Shown here: positions 5,199-23,139 of the stretch, one piece after another
How the letters are laid out: each line of letters opens with the position of its first letter
Position numbering within the stretch: the stretch's first letter is position 1
Source: Ignavibacteriales bacterium
Lineage (GTDB): Bacteria > Bacillota > Sulfobacillia > JABLXB01
Reading direction: 5' to 3'
Assembly (NCBI GenBank): GCA_050260105.1
Contig: JBLNBR010000008.1
Coordinates: forward strand, 2,099-66,098
DNA: 64,000 nucleotides
Position numbers and translations under genes: made by a program
Notes under the pieces: generated by a model
Databases searched by the model: none
What the model was told of the DNA's origin: nothing
Seen by the model: only the letters and a program-made list of their open reading frames with translations

Positions 5199-5237
5199 CG
5201 GTCCGGGGAAGGCCACCTCAATTTGATGAATGAGCAT

Positions 5238-5268
5238 GAAGGACCCCGCCGGCAGGGCGGGGTCCTTC
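5238..5268. terminator. Strong intrinsic terminator-like hairpin (13-bp perfect stem GAAGGACCCCGCC/GGCGGGGTCCTTC, loop GGCAG)
   Basis: Perfect inverted repeat read directly. Located 40 nt after the YHS gene stop. Confidence 0.6.
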
Positions 5269-5270
5269 AT

Positions 5271-5296
5271 TACACAATCCAGGTACACAATCCAGG
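5271..5296 (+). repeat. Tandem direct repeat 2 x 13 bp (TACACAATCCAGG) in the leader of the polysaccharide operon
   Basis: Exact tandem copies read directly, immediately after the terminator hairpin. A TTGCAC-N17-TATCTT promoter-like element follows at about 5343-5371. Confidence 0.6.
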
Positions 5297-5592
5297 TCTC
5301 CGGAGGACATTATGTTGCCCGTCATCATCCTCCCTCGTAGAGTGGCGATTTACCCGAAAACCCCCTGACCTATTGCACGATTTTGGGTAACGTGTTATCT
5401 TATAGGAGGTCACTTTCCAGTAAACAACATCCACCTCAAGACATAGGGATATCCGGGAGACCGCGTCATAGCGCTAGCCGTTCCATGCGTAGCGCTTGTG
5501 GTGTTTGGGGTTCTCCCGATTTGACGTGTTCTGGATCGCGTGGCAAGTCATCGGGGGGCGCGGGTCAACAGTTGTCATCGAATTTGCGGGTC

Positions 5593-7341
5593 ATGATGAC
5601 AACAGAAGGGACATATCCATTTCACCTTGGCGGAGTAAGCACGTGGTGCGATGCCCTGACGAAGGGCGTTCCGGCCGTGGATTTCATTCTCTATGCCATC
5701 CTCATGAACCCGTTCGTGACTCAGAAGTTCAGGACGTCCCCCAACGTGAAGGAACTGATAAAGGTACCCCTGTGGGGAACCGAGGAGCCCAGCGAGCACC
5801 TGACGCACATCCCGTTCTCTTCGGTCTATCTTGCCAAGCGCCGTACCGGCGAGGCAGTCATCAGGTCCGACTTCGTCCCGCTATTCGAAGGGCTGGTGCG
5901 GCAGCTGACGGCGGACGAAGGGCGGAGCGTTCCGGCGGTGGCCAGGACCCTATTCGAGATGTACAAGTATTTCAGACAGTACGACTACCAGACAACCTTC
6001 AAGTCACCCAGCGTGTGGGAGACTTTCAAGAGAGTCACACTCGAGGAAGTGGGCAGACTCGGTCGCAGGGACACGATCCCTACCCTGTTCGACCTGACGG
6101 AGAGCCTTGGATGGCTTTACAGGTTCTTCACCATCTTGAACACGCCGCTGCCAAAGGTGCATGTGACCCATTCAGCAGCCGCGGCGTTCTGCGGGATACC
6201 CTGTGTGATTTCGAAGCTCGAGAACAAGACGCCATACCTCCTGAGCGAGCACGGGATCTACCTGAGGGAGCAGTACATAGGCACGGCGCGGATGAGGCTG
6301 TCGATGTACTCGAGGAGATTCCTGCTCAACCTTGTGACGACGGTTGCACAGCTCAGCTATGAGTTTGCGGACCAGGTATCGCCTGTGTGCCAGTTCAATA
6401 CCCGCTGGGAACGCCGGATGGGAGTGCCGGAAGGCAGAATCAGAGTAGTCTACAACGGCGTCGATCCCGGGATCTACGCGCCAGCGCCGGATAAAGCCCA
6501 GGTGAGGCGCCCGCCGACGGTGGTGTGCGTTGCCCGAATAGACCCGATCAAGGACATGGAGACGCTCATTCGAACGGCGGCCCTGGTAAGACAGGCTGTG
6601 CCGGGTGTCAAGTTCGTCGTGTACGGCGCTCCCAGCTCGCAGTCGTATTTCGAGCGCTGCTACAAGTTAAGGTCGGAACTGGCCCTGGACGAGGTCTTCA
6701 TATTCGCGGGCCACACGAACGATGTGGCCGCCGCGTTCCGCACGGCGGACGTGGTCGCCCTGTCGAGCATATCGGAGGGCTTTCCGTACAGCGTAGTCGA
6801 GGCGATGATGTCGGGGAAGCCCATCGTGGCGACCGACGTCGGAGGGGTTCGTGAAGCGGTTGAGGGCTGCGGGTTTGTCGTGCCACCCCGGTCGCCGGAC
6901 AAGATGGCCACAGCCCTGGTGAAGTTGCTCGACGACGAACAGTTGAGGGCGGCGCTCGGGAAGCGGGCCAGGGAGAAGTCGCTGGAGTCGTTCACCATCG
7001 CCCGGCTGGTCAGCGAGTACCTGGATTCGTACGTCAGACTCCACGAGGGCGCGCTGCGTCGCTCGGCTGCCGCCAGCCGGAACAGGCAGGCGCTGTTCAC
7101 CGAGCGCGGCCTGGCGTTCATGGAGGCGGAGATGTGGCTCGAGGCTGTTGAACAGTTCAGGAGGGCCGTGGACGCCAATCCGTCGAGCCCTGCGGTTCCC
7201 GTCATACTCACGGAGATTGCTCAAGCATACAACAGTATGGGTCGCGTAGACCTTGCTCTCGTGGAGCTTCAGAAGGCGGAAATCCACGCGGAGATGGTGC
7301 TCGGGTTAACGTCCCCACTTGAACGGGCGGCAAACGGGTAG
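5593..7341 (+). CDS. PelF-like family 4 glycosyltransferase (DUF3492-type N-terminus) with C-terminal TPR-like tail
   Basis: N-terminus MMTTEGTYPFHLGGVSTW resembles the EGTYPYV.GGVSSW DUF3492 signature of PelF-type GT4s. The GT4 C-domain motif is EGFPYSVVEAMMSGKPIVATDVGG. TPR-like helices are at the C-terminus. The ORF-track start at 5383 is probably leader; TTG 5584 is an alternative start. Confidence 0.8.
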   Translation: MMTTEGTYPFHLGGVSTWCDALTKGVPAVDFILYAILMNPFVTQKFRTSPNVKELIKVPLWGTEEPSEHLTHIPFSSVYLAKRRTGEAVIRSDFVPLFEGLVRQLTADEGRSVPAVARTLFEMYKYFRQYDYQTTFKSPSVWETFKRVTLEEVGRLGRRDTIPTLFDLTESLGWLYRFFTILNTPLPKVHVTHSAAAAFCGIPCVISKLENKTPYLLSEHGIYLREQYIGTARMRLSMYSRRFLLNLVTTVAQLSYEFADQVSPVCQFNTRWERRMGVPEGRIRVVYNGVDPGIYAPAPDKAQVRRPPTVVCVARIDPIKDMETLIRTAALVRQAVPGVKFVVYGAPSSQSYFERCYKLRSELALDEVFIFAGHTNDVAAAFRTADVVALSSISEGFPYSVVEAMMSGKPIVATDVGGVREAVEGCGFVVPPRSPDKMATALVKLLDDEQLRAALGKRAREKSLESFTIARLVSEYLDSYVRLHEGALRRSAAASRNRQALFTERGLAFMEAEMWLEAVEQFRRAVDANPSSPAVPVILTEIAQAYNSMGRVDLALVELQKAEIHAEMVLGLTSPLERAANG

Positions 7342-7361
7342 CGACAAAGGTGGATTGAGCG

Positions 7362-9055: not shown

Positions 9056-9079
9056 GTCTGGCTTGTTGGAGAGGCTGAA

Positions 9080-10654
9080 ATGACCGGGGAACACACAGAT
9101 CTGAGCGCGCTGGCGCGTGAGGTGGCGGAGAGGACCAGGTTCCCGCGTGACTGCTACGAGGTGGCTGCCGTTCTCGAGTCGATGGCCTGGACAGACGCCC
9201 TCGCACTCGAACGCTTCGGATTCGAGGATGTGTTCGAGCTCGCCAGCGCAGTCTTCGGGATGATCCCCAGGATAACCGCGGAATCCGCCGCCCGCCCCGA
9301 TAGAACCCCGGTATGGTTGGTACTACTGGTCATGGTCAAGCAATTCCTCCGTGGGATCATGTTCGCGATGCCGATGGCGATTTCTATCATCGCCATGCTC
9401 ACGATAAGGTATTCGCTCTGGTCCTACCAGTACTTCTCCGTCGAGAACGCCACGGCCATCGCGATCGGCACGGCGATGAGTTTCGTCGCCACGGGAGGCT
9501 TCACGCAGGCGATAGCCAGGCGGGGCCTGATGTACATTTCGCAGAATGAATACGGCCTCGCCAGGAGACTCTCATTCAATATCGTGCTGATTGGTGTTGT
9601 CGCCACGCTTGTTCTCGGGGCAGTCATGTTCCTGCTCAACCTGGCGTTCGCCGTTTTCCCCTGGAGCATGGCGTGGTTCACCTTCATATACTACCTGTTT
9701 CTATCGGCGATCTGGCTGTCAATCACGATCCTGTACATGCTCCGCAGGGAAGTCCTGTTCACCCTGGTGATGGCGGCCGGTATCGGGCTGGTGGTCCTCC
9801 TGCACGAATTCCTGCGCCTTACGATCATCGTCTCACAGATACTTGCTCTCTCGGTAACCGCTGGGGTATCGCTATCCCTGGCCACATACCTGTTCCTCTC
9901 CGCGGAGAGGCGAAGCGAATCGGGTCTCGAGGCAGCTCCGCTCCCGCGAGCCTCGCTTGTCGTGTATACCAGCGTTCCGTATTTCGTCTACGGCGTGCTG
10001 TACTTCTCGTTTCTGTATCTCGACAGGATCATAAGCTGGTCGACGAACGACGTGTACATGCCATACGTCATATGGTTTCGCGGACAATACGAACTGGGGC
10101 TGGACTGGGCGATTCTCGCCATCATCATCCCCATGGGCGCGGTGGAAATGATACTCGAGCAGTTTGTGGGGAGCCTCCTGAAGTCCGAGAAGGCTACCTC
10201 CGGCGCCGAATCGCGGCAATTCGGCCGGATGTACGTGAAGACATACACCAGGCAGATGGCGCTTTACCTCGCGCTGTCCGCGCTGAGTGGATACCTTCTG
10301 CATTCGGCCATCCTGCACGTGGAAAACCTGAGGATGTTCGAGGTGTACGTCTCGGGTGACCGCGTTTCATGGATTGTCTTCAACTGGTCGCTGATCGCCT
10401 ATGTGCTGTTGGCGGCCGGCCTGCTCAACTCGCTGATGCTATTCTGTCTTTCGAGGCCGGAGATGGCGGTGCGGGCGATTTCGTCGGCAGTACTGGTGGA
10501 TTTCGTCGTGGGCTTCGTTTGCAGCCGGCTCCTGGGTTACTACTGGGCAGTAGCCGGTCTCGTCGTCGGAGCCGCTGTCTTCGCGGTTACGGGTTCGAGG
10601 CAGGTTTTCAGGGTGTTGCGCAATCTCGATTATTACTATTACGCGTCACTCTAG
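9080..10654 (+). CDS. Polytopic integral membrane protein (about 12 TM segments) with ~60-aa cytoplasmic N-domain; possible polysaccharide polymerase or exporter component
   Basis: Hydrophobic periodicity throughout. Long uninterrupted ORF inside the operon. No family signature recognised. Confidence 0.55.
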   Translation: MTGEHTDLSALAREVAERTRFPRDCYEVAAVLESMAWTDALALERFGFEDVFELASAVFGMIPRITAESAARPDRTPVWLVLLVMVKQFLRGIMFAMPMAISIIAMLTIRYSLWSYQYFSVENATAIAIGTAMSFVATGGFTQAIARRGLMYISQNEYGLARRLSFNIVLIGVVATLVLGAVMFLLNLAFAVFPWSMAWFTFIYYLFLSAIWLSITILYMLRREVLFTLVMAAGIGLVVLLHEFLRLTIIVSQILALSVTAGVSLSLATYLFLSAERRSESGLEAAPLPRASLVVYTSVPYFVYGVLYFSFLYLDRIISWSTNDVYMPYVIWFRGQYELGLDWAILAIIIPMGAVEMILEQFVGSLLKSEKATSGAESRQFGRMYVKTYTRQMALYLALSALSGYLLHSAILHVENLRMFEVYVSGDRVSWIVFNWSLIAYVLLAAGLLNSLMLFCLSRPEMAVRAISSAVLVDFVVGFVCSRLLGYYWAVAGLVVGAAVFAVTGSRQVFRVLRNLDYYYYASL

Positions 10655-10709
10655 CGGCCGTCCGGCCTGCCGGGCCGTCCGGCGTTGGCCGGGCGGTCTG
10701 TGATGGGGG

Positions 10710-12698
10710 ATGGACTTGTACAACAGCGTGACAATCGCTACGGCGCTGTTCCGGATGGGCCTGTCATTCACCGGCCTGTTCATGGTATTGCCAGCGTTGT
10801 TGTTCAGGAAGGAGCCGGGGGCGCCGGCGCTGGACTCTTTCTACGCCAATTTCGTGAAGATGGTGTTCTTCATCCAGGTGACAACATATGCGCTTGCCGC
10901 TGTCCGCCTGTATGAAGTAATCTCGCTCGTCACGGTCTTCCTTGTGGCGGGCCTGTGGCGGGTAAGGTCATCAATGACCCCGGAACAGGTTCCCCGCGTT
11001 CGATCCATGCTCACGGTCCGCGGCCTGGACCTGGCGGACAGGAGGGTCGGCCTGTCCCACCTGGCCGCTCAGTGCAGGTTGACCATGGCGGCCCATGTCC
11101 GGGGTGTGTGTGTGGCGATGCGCGATAGGCTGAACCTCTTCGACTCGCTTGCGCTGTTCGCCACGCTCGGATACGCTGCCTACCTGCGGTTCCTCGACTC
11201 GATCGTCAACGCGGCCCCCGCCATGTCCGACTCTTATGTGACGCTGGCATGGATGAAATACATCGAGCGCCGCCAACTGTTTCACGATGGGATTTACCCG
11301 CACGGGTTTCACATATGGCTGTCGGTCCTGCACAAGTTCTCCGCCATCGACGCCCTGTTCGTGCTCAAATACGCCGGACCGTTCAACTCCGTGTTGACAA
11401 CGCTGTCATGCTACTACTTCGTATCGAGGATGACGGAAAACCCCCTGGCCGGCGTATGTTCGGCGTTCGCATACGGCTGCCTGCCCTCTTTCATGCCCTA
11501 CGAGTTCCAGCGTCAGGCGGCCACCAACTCACAGGAGTTCGCGATGCTGTTCCTGCTGCCGGCCGTTGTGTTCGTCGTGAGGTACCTGAGGCAGGGATCG
11601 CCCCGGGATCTCGCGGCCGCCTTCTGCGCGATCGGCGTCACGGGGTTGACTCACCCCGTGGTGACGCTGTTCGCGGTTGCTGGAGCGTTTGCCGCCGTCT
11701 GCGCAAGCGTGTTTTCGCTTTCGACCGGTTTTCGCAGGCTCGTGCGGATGGCCGGCGCCGGCATCGGGGCGGGGGGCGTGGCGTGCGTCCCGCTGGCCGC
11801 CGGACTGGCGGCGGGCATACCCTTTCACGGTTCATCGGCCGAATTCGCAGTCGCTGAAGGGGTGGCCTCTATACCCGTTGTCCAGCGCCTGCACGCCGCA
11901 GCACTTGTTGCCGGTCTGGCGGGGTGCCTGCTGTGCGCCGTGCTGGCGAGATCACGTCAGTCGCGCGCTGGTTTTCTCTGTTGCGGCTTTCTTGTCTTGG
12001 GATCGGTGTTGGTTTACATGGCGCCCGCTTTCGGGGTCCAGAACCTTGCGCTCTCCGCACGGTCCGGCGAGGTGTATGCCCTGGGGTTGTGCGTGGCTCT
12101 CGGCGCAGTGATTTCCGCGGCGGTACCGCGGGGATCCCTCGGAAGGCGCTGGTTTGTGGTTGCCTGGGGGTGGCTCACTCGAGCGGGGGTCGCAGGGCTC
12201 GCTGCGGCGGTGTTGATGCTGTTCCCCCAGTCGCCCGCCCGTCCATACAAGATGCAGACGAACGAAAGTGCGGAACAGTACATTCGCATCCTGCTCACGG
12301 ACACCCCGACCGATTGGCTCATCGTTTCCGACTTCGAGGGCTATTCTTTGGTGCTGGGGCGGGGCTGGCACTTGATGACTGGGGATTTCGTGCGGCAGGT
12401 GGACCCGTCGGGTGAGAAGCTGGAGATCGTGCAGAACGGGGTGTCGTCGCCCCTCGAGATGTCGAGGATCTACCTGTTCTACGAGGAGAACCCGTACAAG
12501 CCTCCCATCGAGGAGGCCATTCCTGAATACGAACGCAAGGTGGTGGACCAGCGCCGCCTCGCGGAATGGATAGCGAAATACGAGGCTCATCACGGGCCGC
12601 TGAAGGTGTATCACAGGGGGCCGGCTCTGACGATCTATGTCATAGAGCGTTCACCGGATAAGCGTAAGGAATTCGAGAGGATATGGGGCGATGCGTAA
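10710..12698 (+). CDS. Large polytopic membrane protein, GT-C-like/YfhO-like putative glycosyltransferase or polymerase (paralog 1)
   Basis: Multi-TM N-terminal two-thirds plus a soluble C-domain. Shares blocks with the next gene (DSYVTLAWMKYIERRQLFHDGIYPHGFH; RQAATNSQEFAMLFLLP; LGRGWH). Confidence 0.6.
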   Translation: MDLYNSVTIATALFRMGLSFTGLFMVLPALLFRKEPGAPALDSFYANFVKMVFFIQVTTYALAAVRLYEVISLVTVFLVAGLWRVRSSMTPEQVPRVRSMLTVRGLDLADRRVGLSHLAAQCRLTMAAHVRGVCVAMRDRLNLFDSLALFATLGYAAYLRFLDSIVNAAPAMSDSYVTLAWMKYIERRQLFHDGIYPHGFHIWLSVLHKFSAIDALFVLKYAGPFNSVLTTLSCYYFVSRMTENPLAGVCSAFAYGCLPSFMPYEFQRQAATNSQEFAMLFLLPAVVFVVRYLRQGSPRDLAAAFCAIGVTGLTHPVVTLFAVAGAFAAVCASVFSLSTGFRRLVRMAGAGIGAGGVACVPLAAGLAAGIPFHGSSAEFAVAEGVASIPVVQRLHAAALVAGLAGCLLCAVLARSRQSRAGFLCCGFLVLGSVLVYMAPAFGVQNLALSARSGEVYALGLCVALGAVISAAVPRGSLGRRWFVVAWGWLTRAGVAGLAAAVLMLFPQSPARPYKMQTNESAEQYIRILLTDTPTDWLIVSDFEGYSLVLGRGWHLMTGDFVRQVDPSGEKLEIVQNGVSSPLEMSRIYLFYEENPYKPPIEEAIPEYERKVVDQRRLAEWIAKYEAHHGPLKVYHRGPALTIYVIERSPDKRKEFERIWGDA

Positions 12699-14856
12699 AC
12701 AGGCGCCTGATTCTGGCTCACAGCGGGGACTCACGACGGGGATGGGGTGTCTCACCACTCTCCTCATCCTGGCTGTCTTGAACGCCGCCCTCTATCTTCT
12801 GTTCAAAGCGCAGCCTGCCAGCGTGCAGCGCACGGCCCTGAATATGATTGCCAGCCTCATCAATGGGGCCAAGGTAGTCGTGTTTTTCTGCCTGATCTTC
12901 ATCTACCTTCCCTGGCGCACAATCGTGCTGCCTGCTGGTCAGCCATGGCTCGATAGACTATTTGCGAACCTGACCCTCTCGACGGCCGTCTTCACCGTCG
13001 TAGTACACGTCCTGGCCCTGCTCAGACTGTACGATCCCATTTCCATCTGGCTGTCCACTGCATTCCTATGTTTCTTCGCCCTGAGAACTGCAAGGGGGCG
13101 TCGAGCGGGGGTCCCGAACTCATCGCGCGGGAATCCGGACACTACGTTCGGCCAGTTCCTGGACATGATTGACCGTCGCACTGACCTGGTGCAGGCGGTG
13201 CTACTGCCACTTCTTCAGCGAGTCACGCGCATGGTGAGGGATTGGCTACGCACACTCACAAGGTTGGCCCTGTCTTGGGATGGACTCCTTTTCGTGTGTG
13301 CAATGGCTTACCCGACGTATCTCCGTATGCACCATGCTATTACCAAGGCGTACTACTCCTGCTCGGACGCTTACGTTCACCTGGCGTGGAGCAAATACTT
13401 GAGTTCTGGAGAGTTGTACCGCGACGGCATCTACCCTCACGGGATGCATGCGGTGCTCTCACTGCTAGATAGGATGGCCTTCGTCGACCCGTATTGGGTG
13501 TTCCGCTACGCAGGGGCCATGGTGGGAGTGCTGATTGTCCTTGCTGTGTTCTACGCGGTTTACCGCTTCACATCTGATTTGCCAGCTGCAGCGGTTGCTT
13601 CGTTTGTTTACGGGATCGAGTGTGGTCTGCCGGCATCGGCCTGGAGGCAGACAGCGGCCCTGCCGCAGGAATTCGCGATGCTATTCTTGCTCCCCGGGTT
13701 GGTGTTCCTAAATGACTATGTCGGCACCGACGACCGGCGGTACTTGTTGCTGTTCCTTGCGGCGTATTTCATGACCCTGGTCAGTCACCCGTTTATATCG
13801 TTTTACATGTTGATCGGGACGGCTTGCATACTACTGCCGGCGGTCATCGGCCGATCGATCGGCCTGCGCCAGGTGGGCTGGTTGGGTATTGGCGGCCTGC
13901 TCACGAGCATTGCAGGGACCCTGCCATACAGTGTGGGTCTCGTTTTCCATCAGAGACTCCATTCTGTCGAGTGGGCTCTCTCCACCCAGATACTCGAGTT
14001 TTCGTCTGGTCCCACTTCCGTGGCTGACACCCTCAGGAGCATCCCCAAACCCGAGATGACAAGCGTGGTTTGTGCCGCAGCCCTCGTGCTTGCCGGAGGG
14101 TTATCGGTTCTCCACCGCCGGGCTTCCGGGCGACGGCCGGCGGCAGGATTGGGCCTCACGTGCCTTGTCCTTTTCGCTATGTGTGAGGCTCGAGTTCTAG
14201 GGCTGCCACAGTTGATTGAGCCTCAACGTACCCGAATGGTGTTTTCGCTTGTGGCTGCAACCATACTCGGCCAAGTGGCTTCGGCCTTGCGGTACGCCAT
14301 CCGAGGAAATCTGAGACGCGTTGTGGCGATACTCGCCATTGTGGCCCTGGGAGTCTACTTCCACCCCAAACCCTACGTCAGTGAAATGTTGGAGTATTCG
14401 GTTGCAGCGGAGACATACTTGCGGCTCAGAGATGAGTTCCCGCCGCTGAGCTGGACCCTCGTGGCGCCCGTGGAACAGTACCAACAGGTGTTGGGGCGAG
14501 GATGGCACTACGAGCTTATCCGATTTGTCACCGAATTCAATGTGGAGAGGGTTTCGAGAAAGAGTTTCCGTTTTCCGATACCTACCCCGCACATCTTTGT
14601 TCTTGTCGAGAAAATTCCGCTGGGAACGAAGGTCCCTGTAACCCCAGAGATGGCACTGAAGCCGTTGCCGAGTAGCGGATCTGAATTGGGTACTGGCTAC
14701 TACCGCAACGCTTCCCTGCGGAGCATTGTCGAGGCGCGCGCCATGGCCATTTGTGAGGCATACATGTCAAGCCATAATGACGCCACCATCTACTACGAAG
14801 ACGACACCATCAGGGTGTATCACTTTGTGAATGCCGTTACCAAGACATTGCAGTAG
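12691..14856 (+). CDS. Large polytopic membrane protein, GT-C-like/YfhO-like (paralog 2, tandem duplicate of the upstream gene)
   Basis: Matching blocks DAYVHLAWSKYLSSGELYRDGIYPHGMH, RQTAALPQEFAMLFLLP and LGRGWH. Overlaps paralog 1 by 8 nt. Confidence 0.6.
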   Translation: MRKQAPDSGSQRGLTTGMGCLTTLLILAVLNAALYLLFKAQPASVQRTALNMIASLINGAKVVVFFCLIFIYLPWRTIVLPAGQPWLDRLFANLTLSTAVFTVVVHVLALLRLYDPISIWLSTAFLCFFALRTARGRRAGVPNSSRGNPDTTFGQFLDMIDRRTDLVQAVLLPLLQRVTRMVRDWLRTLTRLALSWDGLLFVCAMAYPTYLRMHHAITKAYYSCSDAYVHLAWSKYLSSGELYRDGIYPHGMHAVLSLLDRMAFVDPYWVFRYAGAMVGVLIVLAVFYAVYRFTSDLPAAAVASFVYGIECGLPASAWRQTAALPQEFAMLFLLPGLVFLNDYVGTDDRRYLLLFLAAYFMTLVSHPFISFYMLIGTACILLPAVIGRSIGLRQVGWLGIGGLLTSIAGTLPYSVGLVFHQRLHSVEWALSTQILEFSSGPTSVADTLRSIPKPEMTSVVCAAALVLAGGLSVLHRRASGRRPAAGLGLTCLVLFAMCEARVLGLPQLIEPQRTRMVFSLVAATILGQVASALRYAIRGNLRRVVAILAIVALGVYFHPKPYVSEMLEYSVAAETYLRLRDEFPPLSWTLVAPVEQYQQVLGRGWHYELIRFVTEFNVERVSRKSFRFPIPTPHIFVLVEKIPLGTKVPVTPEMALKPLPSSGSELGTGYYRNASLRSIVEARAMAICEAYMSSHNDATIYYEDDTIRVYHFVNAVTKTLQ

Positions 14857-14904
14857 AGCGCATGCATGTCCACAATGAGGTAGCGCTGGAAAGGGGCGGT
14901 TGAC

Positions 14905-15732: not shown

Positions 15733-15739
15733 GAACACC

Positions 15740-16924
15740 ATGGTGAAGCGCGGTGATTGGGCCGGGTCGGTGTTTCTTACCGACGCCCAACAACGCAAGA
15801 CCCTGGCGGCAATTCGATCCCTCGCGCGCAGGCGAATCGCGCCACACGCCGGAGAAGTGACTGTCCTTGCGACATCGCTTTTCTCGCGTTACTGTGGTGG
15901 ACGCCTGGTGTATCCATCGCCGATCCTGCACCCCTCGGAGTGGGTGGACACCGTAGAGAAGTACGTGAGAACACACGCGATAGAATGCCTGTTCCCAATG
16001 GACGATGATAGCGTGCTGTTGGCTTCGGCCCGCAGGAAGGCATTCCAATCCCTGTGCGCCCTGCCGTTGCCCCCACACGAGATACTCGTTGAGGGTATGG
16101 ACAAGGCGAAGACAGTTGCCGCTGCGCAAGGCGCGGGGCTGAGATGTCCGGTTAGTATGCCGATTGCTGCCGCATGCCAGGCCAAGGAATGGTGCGGAGG
16201 GTATCCAGCCCTGGTCAGGCCGCGAAGGAGCTCTGGCGCCAGGGGACTCCGGGTTGTCCGAGGACCGCAGGATCTGGCCAATACAGTTGCAGCGCTGGCA
16301 AAGGAATACCCGGATGGACTTCTCATCCAGGAATACCTGGCTCAAGGGCCGAAGTTCGACGTGTGCGTTATGTTGGACTGGTCGGGCAAGCCGCTCGCTT
16401 CATTCGTGCAGAGGGAGATCAGATGTTTTCCTATTCCTCACGGTCCCAGCACTGTTCAAGAGAGCGTGCACAGGCCGGATCTCGTTGACCTCGCGCTTAA
16501 GCTGCTAAAACGCATGGGTTGGACGGGCCTTGCCGAAGTGGAATTCATGGAGGACCCAAGGGACGGAATGCCGGTGTTCATGGAGGTCAACCCGAGATTC
16601 TGGGCCTCTCTTCACCTGGCGGTGGAATGTGGAGTGGACTTTCCGTATCTCTTGTATCTGCTGGCCACAGGCAGGGATGTTCCGAACCGGCACGAATACC
16701 CTGCTGGGTTGAAATGCCGGTGGCTGCTGCCCGGAGACGTACTACACTTCATTTCGAACCCTCAAAGGCTGAGGATGGAGCCGGGCTTCTTCGAATTCTT
16801 CCGCAGGGACGTTATGGATGACATCATGTCCCTGTCTGATCCGGGGCCCACACTGGGATTCATATTGGCTGCGGCAAGATATGCGTTCGATCCTGTGATG
16901 TGGCGGTTCATGTTCCGGCGGTGA
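15740..16924 (+). CDS. ATP-grasp family ligase
   Basis: PALVRPRRSSGARGLRVV (glycine-rich ATP-grasp loop) and AEVEFMED…MEVNPRF (E[IV]NPR motif). Confidence 0.65.
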   Translation: MVKRGDWAGSVFLTDAQQRKTLAAIRSLARRRIAPHAGEVTVLATSLFSRYCGGRLVYPSPILHPSEWVDTVEKYVRTHAIECLFPMDDDSVLLASARRKAFQSLCALPLPPHEILVEGMDKAKTVAAAQGAGLRCPVSMPIAAACQAKEWCGGYPALVRPRRSSGARGLRVVRGPQDLANTVAALAKEYPDGLLIQEYLAQGPKFDVCVMLDWSGKPLASFVQREIRCFPIPHGPSTVQESVHRPDLVDLALKLLKRMGWTGLAEVEFMEDPRDGMPVFMEVNPRFWASLHLAVECGVDFPYLLYLLATGRDVPNRHEYPAGLKCRWLLPGDVLHFISNPQRLRMEPGFFEFFRRDVMDDIMSLSDPGPTLGFILAAARYAFDPVMWRFMFRR

Positions 16925-17835
16925 CGACCGTCGGTGGGCCATGGCGCCGGGCGGGCAGTCCCGGGCGTTATTCTGGAGGCGCTGTCTCATTGCTCAACGC
17001 ACTCACGTTCGACATCGAAGAATGGTATCACGGCAACCTGTTCCGTTTCGCGGAACCGCAGATGGCGCGGTTCCCGAGTCGTGTTGCGCCTCCGACAATG
17101 GACATACTCGACATGCTGAGGGCATCTGGTACCAGGGCCACCTTCTTCTTCCTTGGGGTCGTGGCCAGGGATCATCCCGAGCTCGTGAGGCGCGCAGCCT
17201 CTGAAGGCCACGAAGTCGCCTGCCACGGCTGGGAGCACCGTCTCCTGTACACCCTTTCCGATGATGAAGTCAAGCAGGACCTTCTCAGGGCCAAGGGCCT
17301 CCTGGAAGACATCTCCGGCACTCGTGTAAGGGGGTTCAGGGCGCCTTCCTGGTCGATATCGCGCCGCACTACACACCTGTTGAGAGTGCTGTGCGAATGC
17401 GGGTTCGAGTACGATTCCAGCGCTTTCCCAAGAGGGACGCCGCTTTTCGGCGTTGACGGGGTTTCACCGGGGCCCACGCGGATTTCGGTTGGAGATGGTC
17501 CCGGACGGTGGAGCATTATTGAGTCTCCAGCTGCCGCCTACGACACCGGCATCGGGCTAGGGATACCGTTTGGTGGGGGATTGTTCTTGCGCATATGGCC
17601 GTACCTCCTCACCCGGTCCTGGATTCGTCGCCTCAATGGCAGGGGAGAGCCGGCCGTCATCTATGTTCACCCGTGGGAGTTGGATATGGGCCTCCCCGTC
17701 TGTAGTCCGGTGTGGCGCCGCATGGCCAGGGACTTCAACCTGCGTTCGACAAGGCCCAAGTTGGAGGCTATTCTGAGGGATTTCTCCCTGGGGACAGTTC
17801 TTGAGATGCTTCGAGAGAGAGGCCTGTATGAATAG
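16900..17835 (+). CDS. Polysaccharide deacetylase (CE4), resembling the PEP-CTERM-locus/DUF3473 subfamily
   Basis: LTFDIEEWYHG (TFDVEDWF-type motif) and HGWEHR. Overlaps upstream gene. Confidence 0.7.
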   Translation: MAVHVPAVTTVGGPWRRAGSPGRYSGGAVSLLNALTFDIEEWYHGNLFRFAEPQMARFPSRVAPPTMDILDMLRASGTRATFFFLGVVARDHPELVRRAASEGHEVACHGWEHRLLYTLSDDEVKQDLLRAKGLLEDISGTRVRGFRAPSWSISRRTTHLLRVLCECGFEYDSSAFPRGTPLFGVDGVSPGPTRISVGDGPGRWSIIESPAAAYDTGIGLGIPFGGGLFLRIWPYLLTRSWIRRLNGRGEPAVIYVHPWELDMGLPVCSPVWRRMARDFNLRSTRPKLEAILRDFSLGTVLEMLRERGLYE

Positions 17836-19396
17836 CACGCGGCGGTTGTCACCGGCTCTCATCGTTGCCGGGGCGAACATCATCCTCGCCGTGGTCGCGT
17901 TCGTCAGGGAGGCTGTCCTGGGGGCGACGATCGGGACAGAGTACTCGGCAGACGCATTCGCCCTATCCCTTTACCTGGCGGACGCGCAGGCGAATACCAT
18001 CTTCTACAGCTCGATCGTGTTCGCGGCCATCCCGGTTCTGTCAGGACATGTTGTCGATCGTCGCAGAGACAGTCTGTTGCGCACTCTTAACTCGGCTACC
18101 GGGACGGGCGTGGCCGTCAGCGCCGCTCTGTGGACAGTGAACGCATCAGCCGCCAGGCTGCTTATCAGCACCCTGGGGGCCGGCTTTCCCGCTCCAGAGA
18201 GGAGCCTGGCAACCAGCATGTTCCTCCTATTGCTCCCCCTGATTCCCTGCTACATACTTTCCGCTGTATTCATTTCGGGTTTGCAGGCATGCTCCGAGTT
18301 CGGGGTGCCCGCTTTCGGCCCCGTTGTTCTCAACGTCTTGTTCATTGCCGGCCTGGGGGCAACGATGAGCCACCTCGGGCCGGCTGGCCTGTCGGTTTCC
18401 TACAGCGTTGGCGCCGTCGCAATGCTCTTGCTCCAGGCCGTGACGCTACATGTGAAAGGGCTTCCCATCAGACCATCATTTGACATTTGCGACCCGGGAC
18501 TGAGGCAAATGGTAACCGCCCTTGTCCCGATTGCCCTTGTACAGGTCTTCAACCAGCCAACCTATCTTGTAGAGCGCATACTTGCGGGGAGGTTCGGCGA
18601 GGGTGGCGTCGCCAGCCTGACATATGCTTTCAAGGTGTCGCAGATCCCTGTCTGGGTATTCGTGGCTGCTCTGGGCGCTGTGGCGTTTCCCGCTATGTCA
18701 CGTTTCGCCCACCTCAACGACGTGGATGGAATGTCTGGCGTACTGGAAAAGGCCGCTGAACTGACCATGGCCATCACACTCCCATCGGCTGTTGTGTTCC
18801 GGGTCTTCGCCCGAGAGGTGACTGCGGCGATATTCATGAGGGGTGCATTCGGGGCGGCGTCGCTCGCTTCGACGTCCCAGGTGCTCCGGGGTTATGCGCT
18901 GGCGCCCGTATGTCACGGGTTGCTATACCTGTTGCTCAGACTGTGCTACGCCTGCCGCGACACAGCGACACCCATCATAGCAACTCTGGCCGGTTCCGCG
19001 GTTACGGTGCTAGCGGATCTCATCTTGACACCCAGTCTGGGTCTTGAGGCGCTGGGCTTCGGATCCGCCATCGGGTTGACGGTATCCGCAGCATTCATCA
19101 CCTGGAGGGTCCGTACGAGGCTGGCACGTGAGGCGCCGCGGCGCCTCGCCTTGGCCGCCGGCAGTATTCTTGTATGCTGCATCATCATGTTGATGGTGAT
19201 GTTCGCAGTCGAAGGGTGTCTGCCGGTGCACGTTGAAGCAATCACTGAGGAACAGAGGTTGTTCCGGACGGGGGCATTGTTCTCCGCAGGATTCGCGTCG
19301 TATGCGACGGCATACCTCTTTCTCGGCTCGGGAGCGTTACGATTTCGCGGAGTTGTGGCATCGAATCGCGCAGATCATGGCGCCCCCAGGGAGTGA
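17828..19396 (+). CDS. MOP-superfamily flippase, MurJ/MviN-like (PelG-like role possible)
   Basis: N-terminus ALIVAGANIILAVVAFVREAVLGATIGTEYSADAFALSLYL…IPVL matches the MurJ N-terminal pattern. About 14 TM segments, about 520 aa. Confidence 0.7.
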   Translation: MNSTRRLSPALIVAGANIILAVVAFVREAVLGATIGTEYSADAFALSLYLADAQANTIFYSSIVFAAIPVLSGHVVDRRRDSLLRTLNSATGTGVAVSAALWTVNASAARLLISTLGAGFPAPERSLATSMFLLLLPLIPCYILSAVFISGLQACSEFGVPAFGPVVLNVLFIAGLGATMSHLGPAGLSVSYSVGAVAMLLLQAVTLHVKGLPIRPSFDICDPGLRQMVTALVPIALVQVFNQPTYLVERILAGRFGEGGVASLTYAFKVSQIPVWVFVAALGAVAFPAMSRFAHLNDVDGMSGVLEKAAELTMAITLPSAVVFRVFAREVTAAIFMRGAFGAASLASTSQVLRGYALAPVCHGLLYLLLRLCYACRDTATPIIATLAGSAVTVLADLILTPSLGLEALGFGSAIGLTVSAAFITWRVRTRLAREAPRRLALAAGSILVCCIIMLMVMFAVEGCLPVHVEAITEEQRLFRTGALFSAGFASYATAYLFLGSGALRFRGVVASNRADHGAPRE

Positions 19397-21258
19397 TCTC
19401 GGTGATCATCCATCTGGCTGGAGCGGTCGCTGCAACTCTGATAACAGTGCTGCTCGTGCGTGACCTGCGATTGAGGTCTCTCAACAGGCGCCTCCTGGAG
19501 AGAGAGTCACTGTGGCGCCGGATACTGTCGGCGGTTGGGCCGGGTCTCACCTTTGACGAATCGGCTGGCAACTTGCTCGCACTGATTTCATCCCTCGTGG
19601 ACGCTCCGGGCTACTACCTATACATGAGCGGAACTGAGTCGAACGCGCTTTCGCTCAGAGTGATCAGAAGTGAACCCGAAACGATGAGGGCTGGGATATA
19701 CTACTCCAGCCTGGTGGAGGAGTATCCGGCATACGATGCCCCGCTCAGTCAAGATCCCCGGAACCAGCCCGGCGAGGTGGGATTCGTGGGCGCCGGAGAC
19801 CTTGCCCTGCTGGCTATTCCCATCAGGCGGGACGGTTCCACTATCGCCGCAATACATGTGGGCCCGGTCCGGCCCCACGACATACCTGCCGCCCGTTTGA
19901 ACCTCCTCAAGGACCTGCACCCTGCGCTGACTCTCGCCGTCACCACGATATGGGAGAATGACATCATCAGGCGGAAATCCGATGATCTCGCCGGCCAACT
20001 GGAGGCCGTATCGATAGCCGCAAGGGGGGCCTATGAACCGTCGGGGTTCGTCGAGACCATGATGTCACTCGGCGCCCGGCTCACCGGCAGCGACTCATGG
20101 CTGCTGGCTGTCTTCGATGAATACTGCCCCAGCCGTTTCAAACCGGTCTTCAGGGGAATCTCCGAGACTACTGCGCGCGAAGTCATCAGCCACCTGTCTT
20201 CGGCGCGTGCAACGGGCCTTTTCCCACGGCAGATCGAATTCATCCACGATGCCGGCGCACTCAGAGACTCCCTGGGGACGCTCCTGCGATGCGGTCGTTC
20301 TCAAGGGGTGATTTGGGCCCCCCTGGTGCACGACGACAGAGTAGCCGGCGCACTTATCCTCTTTGTCGATGCTAGACGGCCTCCTGACATCCACAAGATT
20401 CAGGCCCTCGGCGCACTTACGACTTGGCTGGTGGGCGCACTCGACAGCCTTCGTACCCAAGAGCAGGTGACGCGCGCCTATGTGGAAAGCCTCAAGACGC
20501 TGGCCACGTTCATAGATGAACAGGAAATCTACAGCAGGGGTCATTCGGCGAGAGTAGCCAAGCTGGCTCGCGAGATCGCGGGGGAACTGGATCTCGCTCC
20601 CCGGTACCTGGAGGCAGTGGAGCTGGCCGGCTACCTGCATGATATCGGGATGTGCGCGCTCAAAGGCGAACTCGTTTTTGGAGCGGCGAAGTTCACTGAC
20701 GTGGAGTACGAGGAGATGAAGGCGCACACCACCATTGGGGCTGCGCTCGTGGGGCCGGTCAACGACTTCGCCCCGCTGGCCTCCCTAATCAAGCACCACC
20801 ATGAGAGATATGATGGCGGCGGATACCCCGATGGACTGAAGGGCGAGATGATTCCCATTGGGGCAAGGATCGTCGCGGTGGCGGATGTATTCAATGCCAA
20901 GATTACGAACCGGAGCTACAGGCGGGCGCTCAGTTTCGGGAAGGCGGTTGAGGACATGGTGAAGACGGAGGGAACGATGCTTGACCCGAAGTGTGTCAAG
21001 GCGCTTCTGTCCTCGATCCGGCGGAAGCAGAACAGAGCCGAACGGCGGGGCAAGACCCTCGAGCCCTGTTGGGAGATGCTACAGTGTCCTCAGTACCTTC
21101 GTGACGCCTGTCCAGCGGGGCCCAGGGACTGCCACTGTTGGACAGTGCCGGGTGTGCGCTGTGACCTGCACGGTAGCCGTTGCGAGAGCTGTCCTGTCTA
21201 TACCGAGTACGAATTGAGGACAGGCGCTGCGCCGGGTGGTGTGGTCAATGGCCGCTAG
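19393..21258 (+). CDS. Membrane-anchored GAF-like sensor plus HD-GYP c-di-GMP phosphodiesterase with C-terminal 9-Cys tail
   Basis: HD-GYP motifs YLHDIGM and HHERYDGGGYPDGL. N-terminal TM segment. C-terminus CWEMLQCPQYLRDACPAGPRDCHCWTVPGVRCDLHGSRCESCPVY. Confidence 0.8.
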   Translation: MISVIIHLAGAVAATLITVLLVRDLRLRSLNRRLLERESLWRRILSAVGPGLTFDESAGNLLALISSLVDAPGYYLYMSGTESNALSLRVIRSEPETMRAGIYYSSLVEEYPAYDAPLSQDPRNQPGEVGFVGAGDLALLAIPIRRDGSTIAAIHVGPVRPHDIPAARLNLLKDLHPALTLAVTTIWENDIIRRKSDDLAGQLEAVSIAARGAYEPSGFVETMMSLGARLTGSDSWLLAVFDEYCPSRFKPVFRGISETTAREVISHLSSARATGLFPRQIEFIHDAGALRDSLGTLLRCGRSQGVIWAPLVHDDRVAGALILFVDARRPPDIHKIQALGALTTWLVGALDSLRTQEQVTRAYVESLKTLATFIDEQEIYSRGHSARVAKLAREIAGELDLAPRYLEAVELAGYLHDIGMCALKGELVFGAAKFTDVEYEEMKAHTTIGAALVGPVNDFAPLASLIKHHHERYDGGGYPDGLKGEMIPIGARIVAVADVFNAKITNRSYRRALSFGKAVEDMVKTEGTMLDPKCVKALLSSIRRKQNRAERRGKTLEPCWEMLQCPQYLRDACPAGPRDCHCWTVPGVRCDLHGSRCESCPVYTEYELRTGAAPGGVVNGR

Positions 21259-22057
21259 AGACGCGCCGGCCCGCGCCCGCTTCAGGGCTGCTCACAACTA
21301 CGTGGTCTACTATGGCGATGGGCGCCTCGATGACTTGGCTCAATTCGACGTTGCGATTCTCGAAAGCTCGGCCTATGCGGCAGGCGAAGTCGAGGACCTC
21401 TCGCAGCGCGGGTGCCTGCCGATCAGCTATCTCAGCGTTCTGGAATCCAGCGATCATCTGCCGTATCACCAGTTCGCCGCTTGCCGCGATTTCCTCACGC
21501 TGTCTGGTTCGAGGGTCCTGATACCCGAGTTTGACACTTGGGTAATGGATATTCGCGAGCCGCACTGGCGCGAGGTTCTTCTGACCGCTGCTGGCGACAT
21601 GTTGGAGAGGAAGCGCTTCTCCGGCTTGTTCCTTGACACTGTTAGCAGGGTGGAAGACCCGTCGTTTCCGGCGTCGCTTTCCCTGGACCTGGCCGCCGGC
21701 GTCCTCGAATTTGTCAGCACACTTCGAAGGAACTATCCCGGCGCCGTCCTCATCCAGAACCTTGGGCTTGAAAGGCTCGTTCGTCACACGGCCCCGTTGC
21801 TTGACGGCGTGTGCTGGGAAGGGTTCGGGAGTCTTCCCTGCCATGACTCCCGCGAGTGGCGCTGGATGCTCAATAAGATACGGGAGTTGAAGCAGCTACG
21901 TGAACAATACGGCATCAGGATCATGCTGTTGGGTCATGCTGCTTTGGGAAGGGAAGTAGAGGCAATCTTGAGTCGGAGCGGCCCCGATGAACTAATGTCC
22001 TGCTGGGGATTGTCCTATTCCAGGGCGGTTCAACAGGAGATGAACGACAGGGGATGA
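21236..22057 (+). CDS. GH114-like (COG2342/PelA-hydrolase-like) putative endo-alpha-1,4-polygalactosaminidase-type glycoside hydrolase
   Basis: TIM-barrel-like alternation. Blocks FDVAILE, ISYLSVLES (YxS[IV]GE-like) and GLFLDTV. Family assignment is from memory of GH114 motifs, at moderate certainty. Confidence 0.45.
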   Translation: MVWSMAARDAPARARFRAAHNYVVYYGDGRLDDLAQFDVAILESSAYAAGEVEDLSQRGCLPISYLSVLESSDHLPYHQFAACRDFLTLSGSRVLIPEFDTWVMDIREPHWREVLLTAAGDMLERKRFSGLFLDTVSRVEDPSFPASLSLDLAAGVLEFVSTLRRNYPGAVLIQNLGLERLVRHTAPLLDGVCWEGFGSLPCHDSREWRWMLNKIRELKQLREQYGIRIMLLGHAALGREVEAILSRSGPDELMSCWGLSYSRAVQQEMNDRG

Positions 22058-23139
22058 GGATCGCCTATCTTGTTCTCGACGATCTTAGCCGAATGCCCGG
22101 CGTCTGGAAGAAGGTGGTTGGCCAAGTTGAGCAATGGCGCCTTCTCGGGCACGACCCTGCCGTCTTCGCGTGCGAACCAAGGAGGGCGACTCACTCTGAC
22201 TTGATCCACGACTCTCGGGCTGCAGCCTACCCCGACTACGCTGCGGCCTACATCCTACGCAGTCTGACAGCACTGAGAGTCCGGCGTGAATTGAGCGATT
22301 TCCGGCCCGACATCGTCTACATGCGATTCGGGGTGTTCACTCCATTTGTCAGCGGCACTCTGGAAGTGGCTCGCGCCCCAGTCATCATCGAGGTTAACAG
22401 CGATGATGTTGCTGAGTATGATCGGTACGGACCGATGATAGGCGGGTACAATCGGCTTACCCGGGGACTGCTACTGTCAAGGGCTGCGGGGTTCGTCAGC
22501 GTCACCGACGAACTGCGTGCTCGCTTGGGCCGTCCGGCGGTACTTCACGTGGTCGTTCCCAACGGAGTCGCATGGAGAGAGTTCGCACGGCTACCCGCGC
22601 CAGGGAACGATAGGCCAAACATCGTCTTCGTGGGGTCTTCCGATCAACCGTGGCAGGGTGTGGACAAGATAACATATCTTGCCAAGCGATGTCCCGAGTT
22701 CACGTTCCATGTTGTCGGTCCTAAGAACGTGGAGGTCCTACCGAATGTCGTTGTACACGGTTGGAAACTAGGTAAGGACCTTCAGCAGATATACGCGGTG
22801 AGTGATGCTGCGATTGGAACACTCGCTCTCCACAGGAAGGGCATGAATGAAGCGAGTCCCCTCAAGGTCCGAGAGTATTTGGCATACGGAATTCCCAGCA
22901 TTATTGGCTACCACGATCCTGATCTCGAAGGTCATATTCCGGGAATACTCAAGCTACCTAACCACGAGCACAATGTCGCGAATGCCGTATCGGAAATACG
23001 ACAATTCATCGTGGCACACGTTGGCAAGAGAGTTGGTGACGGAGTCAAGCTACTGATCGATTCTGGTAGGAAAGAGGCAAAAAGGGTGGGTTTCTTCCAA
23101 ATGGTCCTTGATCAGCATAGACGGCAAGCGCCACTATGA
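22054..23139 (+). CDS. Glycosyltransferase (GT4-like, GT-B fold)
   Basis: C-domain KVREYLAYGIPSIIGY (E-x7-E-like region). 361 aa. Last gene of the co-directional run. Confidence 0.55.
   Translation: MRIAYLVLDDLSRMPGVWKKVVGQVEQWRLLGHDPAVFACEPRRATHSDLIHDSRAAAYPDYAAAYILRSLTALRVRRELSDFRPDIVYMRFGVFTPFVSGTLEVARAPVIIEVNSDDVAEYDRYGPMIGGYNRLTRGLLLSRAAGFVSVTDELRARLGRPAVLHVVVPNGVAWREFARLPAPGNDRPNIVFVGSSDQPWQGVDKITYLAKRCPEFTFHVVGPKNVEVLPNVVVHGWKLGKDLQQIYAVSDAAIGTLALHRKGMNEASPLKVREYLAYGIPSIIGYHDPDLEGHIPGILKLPNHEHNVANAVSEIRQFIVAHVGKRVGDGVKLLIDSGRKEAKRVGFFQMVLDQHRRQAPL

Follow-up and report, generated by a model that had tools for sequence, protein, structure and literature searches.

Glycosylation on the outer side of the cytoplasmic membrane is mostly the work of GT-C enzymes, and earlier GT-C families revealed surface modifications connected with polymyxin resistance (ArnT), wall glycopolymers (GacL and YfhO) and the target of ethambutol (Emb). 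Two DUF2304 proteins, GacJ and Rv3632, activate the undecaprenyl-phosphate (Und-P)-N-acetylglucosamine (GlcNAc) synthase GacI and the polyprenyl-phosphate-N-acetylgalactosamine (GalNAc) synthase PpgS, and both synthases feed GT-Cs (bioRxiv 10.1101/180810). The Pel-type exopolysaccharide (EPS) loci of Gram-positive bacteria comprise pelDEA(DA)FG and the accessory genes galE, pelA(H), cotH and those for a polyphosphate polymerase, DUF4956 and DUF4832 (PMC7112168); Gram-positive loci with "only pelF and pelG identified" have been noted but not dissected (PMC7112194, S3 Fig). Here we analyze two adjacent genes, called A and B, in a 64,000-nucleotide stretch of contig JBLNBR010000008.1 (assembly GCA_050260105.1; hereafter the window). 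A and B belong to an uncharacterized GT-C family that sits in a widely conserved, undescribed variant of the Pel locus with a lipid-linked-sugar module. Three-component glycosylation through a GT-C and Pel-type EPS loci are both known kinds of system, and the locus does not form a new category.

Predicted fold and paralogy of A and B

The open reading frames (ORFs) of A and B have 8 nucleotides in common (12691-12698), an overlap that is credible because a Shine-Dalgarno-like GAGAGGA stands 7 nucleotides 5' of the ATG of B (12691). A first-pass annotation, made from the letters of the window and its ORFs, had described the two as adjacent, overlapping paralogs that share several long blocks, each with a multispanning N-terminal part and a soluble C-terminal domain, and this description held up throughout. 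The ORFs lie exactly where it placed them, BLASTP aligns A with B over about 600 residues at 30% identity (E=1e-53), and every block that it quoted occurs in both proteins: DSYVTLAWMKY (A 174-184) and DAYVHLAWSKY (B 226-236), DGIYPHGFH (A 193-201) and DGIYPHGMH (B 245-253), the RQ[AT]A...QEFAMLFLLP pair RQAATNSQEFAMLFLLP (A 268-284) and RQTAALPQEFAMLFLLP (B 319-335), and LGRGWH in both (A 549-554, B 601-606). The models described below have about 14 hydrophobic helices followed by an alpha/beta domain.

AlphaFold2 (AF2) models, predicted from a 59-sequence alignment, are confident for A (pLDDT 92.4, pTM 0.91) and somewhat less so for B (pLDDT 84.0, pTM 0.86). When A was searched against the PDB with Foldseek, the top 21 matches were all GT-C enzymes at probability 1.0, namely STT3 of human and yeast (E as low as 2e-7), the C-mannosyltransferase DPY19, AftA, PglB, ALG12, ArnT and Pmt4; the top 25 matches of B, likewise all GT-C enzymes at that probability, comprise these and, in addition, AglB and EmbB. 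A RodA-type structure (6pl6) appears in the list for A at a probability of only 0.38. A and B are thus very probably GT-C-fold proteins. By these models they are closest to the STT3/PMT/ArnT/DPY19/AftA structural group, in which they would form a distinct family within the fold, with no close relative among the solved enzymes. The GT-C-like reading of the first-pass annotation is borne out by models that match only GT-C enzymes at probability 1.0; in the same search, which would also have picked up a transporter fold in place of GT-C, transporter structures reached at most 0.2.

Comparison at the level of sequence agrees that the family is an unfamiliar one, with no curated Pfam or NCBIfam model matched at threshold, no relative by sequence in the PDB and no paper found. 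Neither A nor B matched any NCBIfam model, and neither of the two sequences nor the 59-sequence profile retrieved anything meaningful from the PDB by sequence; the C-terminal domain of A likewise matched no family and no PDB sequence. Pfam gives A a signal from just two models, both of GT-C-type families and both below the gathering cutoff: DUF6541 (PF20176; residues 193-435, 24.2 bits, cutoff 29) and PMT_2 (PF13231, "RgtA/B/C/D-like"; residues 227-332, 20.7 bits, cutoff 26.1). Just 4 of the 59 family members match either one (E<=0.01), and B matches neither these nor any other Pfam model. No family of Wzy-, WaaL- or SEDS-type polymerases or ligases was matched by A or B. The label "YfhO-like," also given at first, does not survive at the sequence level, where the YfhO profile PF09586 matches neither A nor B (E<=1) nor the 59 members (E<=0.01). 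One homolog bears the automatic UniRef name "Glycosyltransferase RgtA/B/C/D-like," and automated annotation has therefore already pointed to a GT-C flavor in at least one family member. Literature searches found nothing that links PelF/PelG with GT-C, ATP-grasp or DUF6541, or that links DUF3492, GT-C and Paenibacillus to the A/B family. A visual likeness of "D-x-Y-helix...G-x-x-P" to "DETRY...GDWIVP" of ArnT was considered as well and dropped as evidence, its alignment being no better than shuffled controls.

Topology and conserved residues

The model of A has 14 hydrophobic helices (residues 6-504) and then an alpha/beta C-terminal domain of about 155 residues. Three N-terminal transmembrane helices, with conserved P28, Y60, L62 and E69, are followed by an Arg/Lys-rich helical hairpin that is predicted to be cytoplasmic (family mean of 9.8 Lys plus Arg residues). 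These first ~140 residues together suggest that the usual GT-C plan is extended at its N terminus, because the partial Pfam matches begin only at residues 193 and 227, and on the model we take the GT-C core to start at helix 143-166. This first core helix leads into the first extracytoplasmic loop (EL1), which in A has 48 residues, two short helices assigned by DSSP (174-186 and 199-211), the invariant D174 (codon 11229-11231) and the block D193-G-x-Y-P-x-G. The aligned loop of B has helices at 227-238 and 251-263 and carries D226 (codon 13366-13368) and D245-G-I-Y-P-H-G.

Across 59 homologs, the invariant residues are D174, L179, W181, G194, Y196, P197 and G199 in EL1; R268, Q275 and E276 in a second loop; H315; and R160, G223, P361 and R451, which sit within or at the ends of transmembrane helices. 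The quoted motifs are thus family-wide conserved positions and not chance resemblances. The C-terminal domains have their own conserved residues (Y524, W536, Y545, G550, G552 and F560 in A; Y576, W588 and G604 in B). With the hairpin set as cytoplasmic, the family-mean count of Lys plus Arg is 18.4 in "inside" loops versus 7.8 in "outside" loops. That topology puts EL1 (167-214), the second loop (261-279), H315 and the C-terminal domain of A outside the cell, and most of the invariant residues of the family fall in predicted outside segments. The loop with the D-x-Y motif, proposed at the outset to be extracytoplasmic, is accordingly predicted to lie outside by the positive-inside rule. Such an invariant Asp in EL1 is a hallmark of the GT-C active site, as in PglB, ArnT and PMT. 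D174 of A and D226 of B are, from their position in the alignment, the putative catalytic Asp residues.

Family, clades and distribution

In a word-indexed database, A has 83 homologs, nearly all unnamed, from Bacillota genomes and metagenome-assembled genomes (MAGs). An exhaustive profile search returned 1,340 cluster representatives with E<=1e-3, and 598 of them also had E<=1e-30; a scan of GTDB species genomes gave 78 loci, essentially all in Bacillota. The carriers include Paenibacillus, Psychrobacillus, Paenisporosarcina, Priestia, Tumebacillus, Alicyclobacillus and Cohnella, as well as Desulfosporosinus, Pelotomaculum and many Clostridia MAGs. The homolog search with B, limited by the word index, found only B itself and one partial match; B-type relatives were recovered from the loci fetched with the A profile.

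Counts of cluster genes were made on the 45 loci with full 10-kb flanks, of which 23 have two family genes and 22 have one. In a midpoint-rooted neighbor-joining tree, 107 sequences fall into two clades with a deep split between them: an A-type clade with all single copies and nearly all "first" copies, and a B-type clade with nearly all "second" copies. Identity averages 0.33 among A-type sequences, 0.30 among B-type sequences and 0.21 across the two clades, and there are a few recent A-to-A duplications (loci L015, L017 and L035). A is always present and forms the core of the family, and B is an optional old paralog. The first-pass annotation had called the two genes tandem duplicated. They are adjacent paralogs, as it said, but the pair in the window is an old, recurrent A+B pair; a recent local tandem duplication was considered and rejected on the two-clade tree.

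Most of the positions that are invariant in the 59 homologs are more than 90% conserved in both clades of the 107-sequence set. R160, D174, W181, K183, Y196, G199, R268, Q269, E276, H315 and R451 are conserved in both, as are Y524, W536 and G552 of the C-terminal domain. B retains every invariant residue of the active-site loop, and the fixed differences from A to B near the putative active-site loop are Y60H, D163H and F191Y. From these sequences, B looks catalytically competent but functionally diverged.

A few records stand out. In a Firmicutes MAG (GCA_013178125, locus L001), the gene directly after A encodes a 241-residue B-like fragment (11956-12681), and a full-length B-type gene (19690-21738) lies 7.7 kb downstream, after the MurJ-like gene; this looks like the relic of a rearrangement of the A/B pair. 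The source record of the window is labeled "Ignavibacteriales bacterium," which is at odds with the all-Bacillota distribution of the GT-C/Pel-like locus and with the DnaK encoded at 57580-59559, whose closest named relatives are all Bacillota/Clostridia MAGs (75 to 90% identity). Either the taxonomic label or the binning of the 66.5-kb contig is probably wrong. A full Paenibacillus-type cluster is likewise found under the label "Candidatus Udaeobacter" (Verrucomicrobiota) on DATJKM010000259.1 (L047). It groups in the tree with the Paenibacillus sequences of L042 and L073 and is probably another mis-binned contig.

The conserved gene cluster

Thirteen plus-strand genes with short gaps or overlaps (5383-23139) form an apparent operon around A and B (Table 1). 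Promoter and terminator scans of 4700-24600 were not above shuffles, so the operon boundaries rest on gene spacing only; an Rfam scan for a cyclic di-GMP (c-di-GMP) or other riboswitch 5' of the operon found one tRNA only in the whole window.

Table 1. Features of genes A and B and of the surrounding cluster, with positions in the window and, where counted, the number of the 45 loci that have the gene. A residues and B residues are segments of the respective protein.
Feature	Position	Strand	Basis	Loci with gene
PelF-like GT4 (DUF3492 + GT1 domain + TPR), first cluster gene	5383..7341	+	Pfam, NCBIfam	44/45
Small DivIVA-like coiled-coil protein, 163 residues	7362..7853	+	tblastn with L001 DivIVA-domain protein, E=9e-15	
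DivIVA-like/PRC-barrel protein, 401 residues	7850..9055	+	Pfam PRC barrel, weak DivIVA match	44/45 (DivIVA/PRC-like)
PelG-like polytopic MOP-type membrane protein, directly 5' of A	9080..10654	+	Pfam PelG PF16933	45/45
Gene A, predicted A-type GT-C-fold membrane glycosyltransferase, 662 residues	10710..12698	+	ORF, AF2, Foldseek	
A residues 1-88, three N-terminal transmembrane helices (6-31, 40-64, 70-88)	10710..10973	+	hydrophobicity, AF2	
A residues 89-142, predicted Arg/Lys-rich cytoplasmic helical hairpin, amphipathic helices 93-109 and 115-140	10974..11135	+		
A residues 167-214, EL1, putative catalytic loop	11208..11351	+	conservation, positive-inside rule	
A residues 261-279, second conserved loop, predicted extracytoplasmic, R268-Q269...Q275-E276-F277	11490..11546	+	predicted outside	
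A residues 505-662, predicted extracytoplasmic alpha/beta C-terminal domain	12222..12695	+	secondary structure, parity of transmembrane helices	
Gene B, B-type paralog, accessory, 721 residues	12691..14856	+	ORF, BLASTP to A, AF2, Foldseek	
B residues 219-266, EL1 of B, D226 and D245-G-I-Y-P-H-G	13345..13488	+	alignment columns	
B residues 558-721, C-terminal soluble domain	14362..14853	+	secondary structure	
GT2, polyprenyl-phosphate-sugar-synthase-like, putative donor synthase, 275 residues	14905..15732	+	Pfam GT2, NCBIfam	43/45
ATP-grasp ligase, predicted cytoplasmic	15740..16924	+	Pfam, NCBIfam; no transmembrane segment or signal peptide	38/45
CE4/DUF3473 polysaccharide-deacetylase-family enzyme without export signal	16900..17835	+	Pfam, NCBIfam	34/45
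MurJ-like MOP-family flippase	17801..19396	+	Pfam MurJ 1.8e-59; TIGR01695 5.5e-62, below equivalog cutoff	37/45
Membrane-anchored GAF + HD-GYP-type (HD_5) protein, N-terminal transmembrane segment	19393..21258	+	Pfam, NCBIfam	38/45 (GAF-HD)
GH114/GHL15-like putative glycoside hydrolase	21236..22057	+	Pfam GH114 1e-5, sub-threshold	38/45
GT4-like glycosyltransferase, last plus-strand gene of apparent operon	22054..23139	+	Pfam	not conserved in other loci

The Pel-like part of the cluster begins with PelF, which matches DUF3492 and Glycos_transf_1 in Pfam and passes the NCBIfam PelF equivalog NF038011 (146.1 bits, cutoff 100). In 68 of 79 loci the PelG gene lies directly 5' of a family member. 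PelD, PelE and a PelA-type exported deacetylase or hydrolase were not detected in the cluster. The place that PelD/PelE-type genes take in canonical loci is occupied here, between PelF and PelG, by two consecutive DivIVA-like genes, which may represent a scaffold or localization module.

The remaining genes include those of a candidate lipid-linked-sugar module. The best NCBIfam matches of the window GT2 are PpgS (9e-14) and ArnC (3e-12), with PgfS, DPM/Dol-P-hexose and AglJ also matched, all below equivalog cutoffs; BLASTP aligns it with E. coli ArnC at E=1e-14, and for the GT2s of other loci the best match is PpgS at 3.9e-34. DUF2304 (GacJ-like) directly follows GT2 in 48 of 81 loci. The GT2s fall into two subtypes. 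Those of the window, L001, L004-L006, L008 and L065 have about 265 to 282 residues and no DUF2304, and they sit just 5' of the ATP-grasp gene, directly after B where B is present; those of most other loci (as in L003, 17434-18557) have about 245 residues plus DUF2304 and follow the MurJ-like gene. The window deacetylase matches TIGR03006 at 7.6e-66 and, far more weakly, the ArnD family (7e-6; BLASTP to ArnD E=6e-6), and 48 of 50 of its homologs have no transmembrane segment or signal peptide. The clusters have no conserved phosphoglycosyltransferase (the Pfam annotations of L001 and L003 contain none), no GtrA- or ArnE/F-type protein was seen in them, and a search for other hidden conserved genes found only an epimerase and small coiled-coil proteins unassigned.

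The membrane-anchored GAF-HD-GYP protein matches an NCBIfam c-di-GMP phosphodiesterase family at 2.9e-40 and is likely a c-di-GMP phosphodiesterase or sensor. The GH114-like protein, with homologs in L007, L030, L068 and others, has no signal peptide or transmembrane segment in 45 of 49 loci, which is odd for a trimmer of an extracellular polymer, and it is longer in Psychrobacillus (421 to 464 residues).

Proposed function and alternatives

We favor, with moderate confidence, a reading in which A and B are GT-C transferases that take a lipid-linked sugar from the Und-P-sugar module and decorate the PelF/PelG-type polymer. The parts of this reading deserve different degrees of trust: that A and B depend on a lipid-phosphate sugar is quite probable, and that their acceptor is a Pel-like polymer is a tentative proposal. 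Kinship of GT2 to PpgS, ArnC, PgfS, DPM and AglJ supports an Und-P-sugar donor pathway, and the lack of a conserved phosphoglycosyltransferase favors a monosaccharide-phosphate-lipid donor. The first-pass annotation had listed the pair as candidates for lipid-linked glycosyl- or arabinosyl-type transferases or for a polymerase/co-polymerase pair. The first of these fits the fold and the context, and the other two are less favored by the gene context.

The analysis itself shows the paralogy, the predicted GT-C fold and topology, the conservation and the recurrent gene association; from these we infer the donor, the acceptor, the catalytic residues, the following roles for the deacetylase, the ATP-grasp protein and the flippase, the order of the cytoplasmic modifications and the division of labor between A and B. 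The cluster GT2 would make an undecaprenyl-phosphate-hexosamine, assisted in most genomes by its GacJ-like DUF2304 partner. The deacetylase and ATP-grasp protein may then remodel the lipid-linked sugar, first by de-N-acetylation and then by re-acylation or amino-acylation; in almost all loci both are without signal peptide or transmembrane segment and would therefore act in the cytoplasm. The MurJ-like MOP protein would flip the lipid-linked sugar, and A, plus B where present, would move it onto an extracytoplasmic acceptor. The likeliest acceptor would be the polymer of the PelF/PelG-like machinery encoded directly upstream, which is the most economical choice because A adjoins the PelG gene in an otherwise Pel-like locus. 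B probably serves a second acceptor position or linkage, either alone or as a heterodimer with A.

However, several observations weigh against this proposal. At the sequence level, nothing was found that links A or B to a characterized GT-C: when compared with E. coli ArnT by hhalign, the family profile gave nothing in the membrane region and only a spurious match in the C-terminal part (0.5% probability), and local alignment of the EL1 segments of A and B with ArnT residues 1-160 gave z = -0.5 and 0.7, not above shuffles. The global TM-scores of A and B to GT-Cs are only 0.35-0.45, and for B alone the positive-inside signal is weak (16 versus 15). The PelG-like protein of the window matches PF16933 over its full length, as its only family match, but with 24.6 bits against a cutoff of 29; among the PelG-like proteins of 10 other loci, one reaches 29.2, four are sub-threshold and five have no match. 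The window is also without DUF2304. Pel synthesis has been described as needing no lipid acceptor (PMC7890745), and a lipid-linked module in a Pel locus is without precedent. The acceptor could instead be a protein, teichoic acid or peptidoglycan, and the substrate of the deacetylase and ATP-grasp protein could be a nucleotide sugar or the PelF polymer in place of a lipid-linked sugar.

One alternative is that A and B work as an Emb/Aft-like pair that builds a processive homopolymer outside the cell from an Und-P-sugar, with A as the polymerase and B as a co-polymerase or branching enzyme. The structural matches include AftA and EmbB, and cooperating paralogous GT-C pairs (EmbA-EmbB and Pmt1-Pmt2) occur in the Foldseek lists. 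The two genes are tightly coupled, by the 8-nucleotide overlap in the window and by spacings of -22 to +51 nucleotides in most other loci, and a single Und-P-sugar synthase would supply two GT-Cs. Yet B is missing from about half of the loci, so that the pair is not required, and a PelF-type polymerizing GT4 is already present in 44 of 45. We regard a polymerase pair as unlikely.

The structural matches also raise the question of whether A and B resemble an oligosaccharyltransferase (OST) or ligase. In that case PelF and the GT4s would build a glycan on undecaprenyl-pyrophosphate, the PelG-like and MurJ-like MOP proteins would flip it, and A and B would move the finished glycan en bloc onto an acceptor in a protein or the cell wall. 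The best matches, STT3, PglB and AglB, likewise have a C-terminal extracytoplasmic domain, and the cluster encodes two MOP-family flippase-like proteins and several GT4s. Against this stand the modest TM-scores to OSTs (0.35-0.45) and the clusters themselves, which conserve no initiating phosphoglycosyltransferase and instead have a nearly universal GT2 of the polyprenyl-phosphate-monosaccharide synthase type. En bloc transfer is in our view improbable. Membership of A and B in the OST family GT66 was rejected, as the WWDYG motif, searched as WW[DE][YWF][GN], is found in 0 of 107 family sequences.

It is still less probable, and by our estimate a distant prospect, that A and B are noncatalytic, with the GT-C fold serving as a scaffold or export partner of PelG in place of the missing PelD and PelE. 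That A adjoins PelG and that homologs of PelD and PelE were not detected in the cluster would fit such a role, but D174, R268, E276, H315 and R451 are strictly invariant across both clades, as is typical of an active site, and a complete lipid-sugar supply module co-occurs. Finally, secondary transporters or permeases would also be polytopic, with about 14 transmembrane helices, and a few MFS/CLC-type structures do appear low in the Foldseek list, but these have probabilities <=0.2 and TM-scores of 0.08-0.15 versus probability 1.0 for GT-C, and neither Pfam nor NCBIfam gives a transporter family match for A or B; we rejected a transporter fold on the Foldseek probabilities and give this explanation hardly any credence.

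Other features of the window

Just downstream of the EPS cluster lie two adjacent DHDPS-family paralogs (dihydrodipicolinate synthase/N-acetylneuraminate lyase-like; 24495-25409 and 25419-26330), followed by a class-V aminotransferase; they may link the cluster to sugar-acid metabolism. An 867-residue protein (39033-41636) with an alpha/beta-hydrolase or lipase-like N-terminal domain and PKD repeats is probably a secreted or surface hydrolase. At 54386-56023, a single 545-residue ORF fuses a Vsr (very-short-patch-repair) endonuclease domain (17-81) to a C-5 cytosine DNA methyltransferase domain (165-519). Near the end of the window, a tRNA (61125-61199, plus strand) adjoins a phage-type tyrosine integrase (61276-62781, minus strand), and G+C falls to 0.54 in the last 2 kb. 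An integrated mobile element probably has its edge here.

Significance

The A/B family, with its ~1,340 cluster representatives, has no curated model and no literature that we could find, and it is a fixed part of a Pel-like locus in many spore-forming and environmental Firmicutes. Its assignment to GT-C would give a concrete annotation to hundreds of "hypothetical proteins." The fold and the logic are familiar; the worth of the finding lies in how large the unannotated family is, in the ATP-grasp/deacetylase chemistry and in the link to a "synthase-dependent" system. It is tempting to go further and propose that in a large group of Firmicutes the Pel-type polymer is built or completed with lipid-linked chemistry, in which an Und-P-hexosamine, deacetylated and then re-acylated or amino-acylated by an ATP-grasp protein in the cytoplasm, is flipped and grafted by A (and B) onto the polymer where it emerges beside PelG. 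We consider this full scheme speculative and rather unlikely to be right in all its parts. If the model favored above is right, the lipid-independent synthase view of Pel fails for this branch of the Firmicutes, and the matrix polymer would bear a so far unseen, possibly N-acylated amino-sugar decoration. Under the full scheme, these decorated Pel-like matrix polysaccharides would form a new class that is chemically distinct, and A would be the first GT-C to be connected with a "synthase-dependent" EPS system.

Comparison with known systems

By structure, the best Foldseek matches are STT3, PglB and AglB (CAZy GT66), with which A and B share a common plan of about 13 to 14 transmembrane helices and a C-terminal extracytoplasmic domain. 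Unlike these enzymes, A and B have neither the WWDYG motif nor any sequence similarity to them, and their context points to an Und-P-monosaccharide as the donor.

Lipid-phosphate-sugar systems offer closer parallels in gene content. The ArnC/ArnD/ArnE-F/ArnT system, which adds aminoarabinose to lipid A, combines, as the A/B cluster would in our proposal, a GT2 synthase, a CE4-type de-N-acylase that acts before flipping, and a GT-C, and we group with it the mycobacterial PpgS/Rv3632/Rv3779 system (galactosamine on arabinogalactan). ArnT is among the Foldseek matches of A, and the deacetylase is related to ArnD. However, A and B have no sequence match to ArnT, the flippase is MurJ-like and not of the ArnE/F type, the ATP-grasp protein has no Arn counterpart, and lipid A cannot be the acceptor in a Firmicute.

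The same division of labor as in the A/B cluster is found in GacI/GacJ/GacK/GacL, which make the GlcNAc side chain of the group A carbohydrate of Streptococcus pyogenes, and CsbB/GtcA/YfhO and GtrA/GtrB/GtrC are systems of the same kind. Like the Gac system, the A/B cluster combines a GT2 for an Und-P-sugar, a DUF2304 partner (in the 48 of 81 loci noted above), an MOP/Wzx-type flippase-like protein and a GT-C in one polysaccharide locus. By contrast, A and B show no similarity to YfhO or PMT-type models at curated thresholds, A has extra N-terminal transmembrane helices and its own C-terminal domain, and the locus can encode two paralogous transferases. The backbone machinery also differs from that of Gac, being PelF/PelG-like and not an ABC-transporter rhamnan pathway, and the cluster adds a cytoplasmic deacetylase and an ATP-grasp protein.

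With the Pel loci of Bacillus cereus ATCC 10987 (pelDEA(DA)FG) and Pseudomonas aeruginosa (pelABCDEFG), the A/B locus has in common a PelF equivalog, a PelG-like protein, a family match to a GalNAc-ase-like hydrolase and a c-di-GMP-type regulator. Where those loci have PelD, PelE and an extracellular PelA-type deacetylase, none of which was detected here, the A/B locus instead has DivIVA-like proteins, one or two GT-Cs, an Und-P-sugar module, an ATP-grasp protein and a deacetylase without signal peptide.

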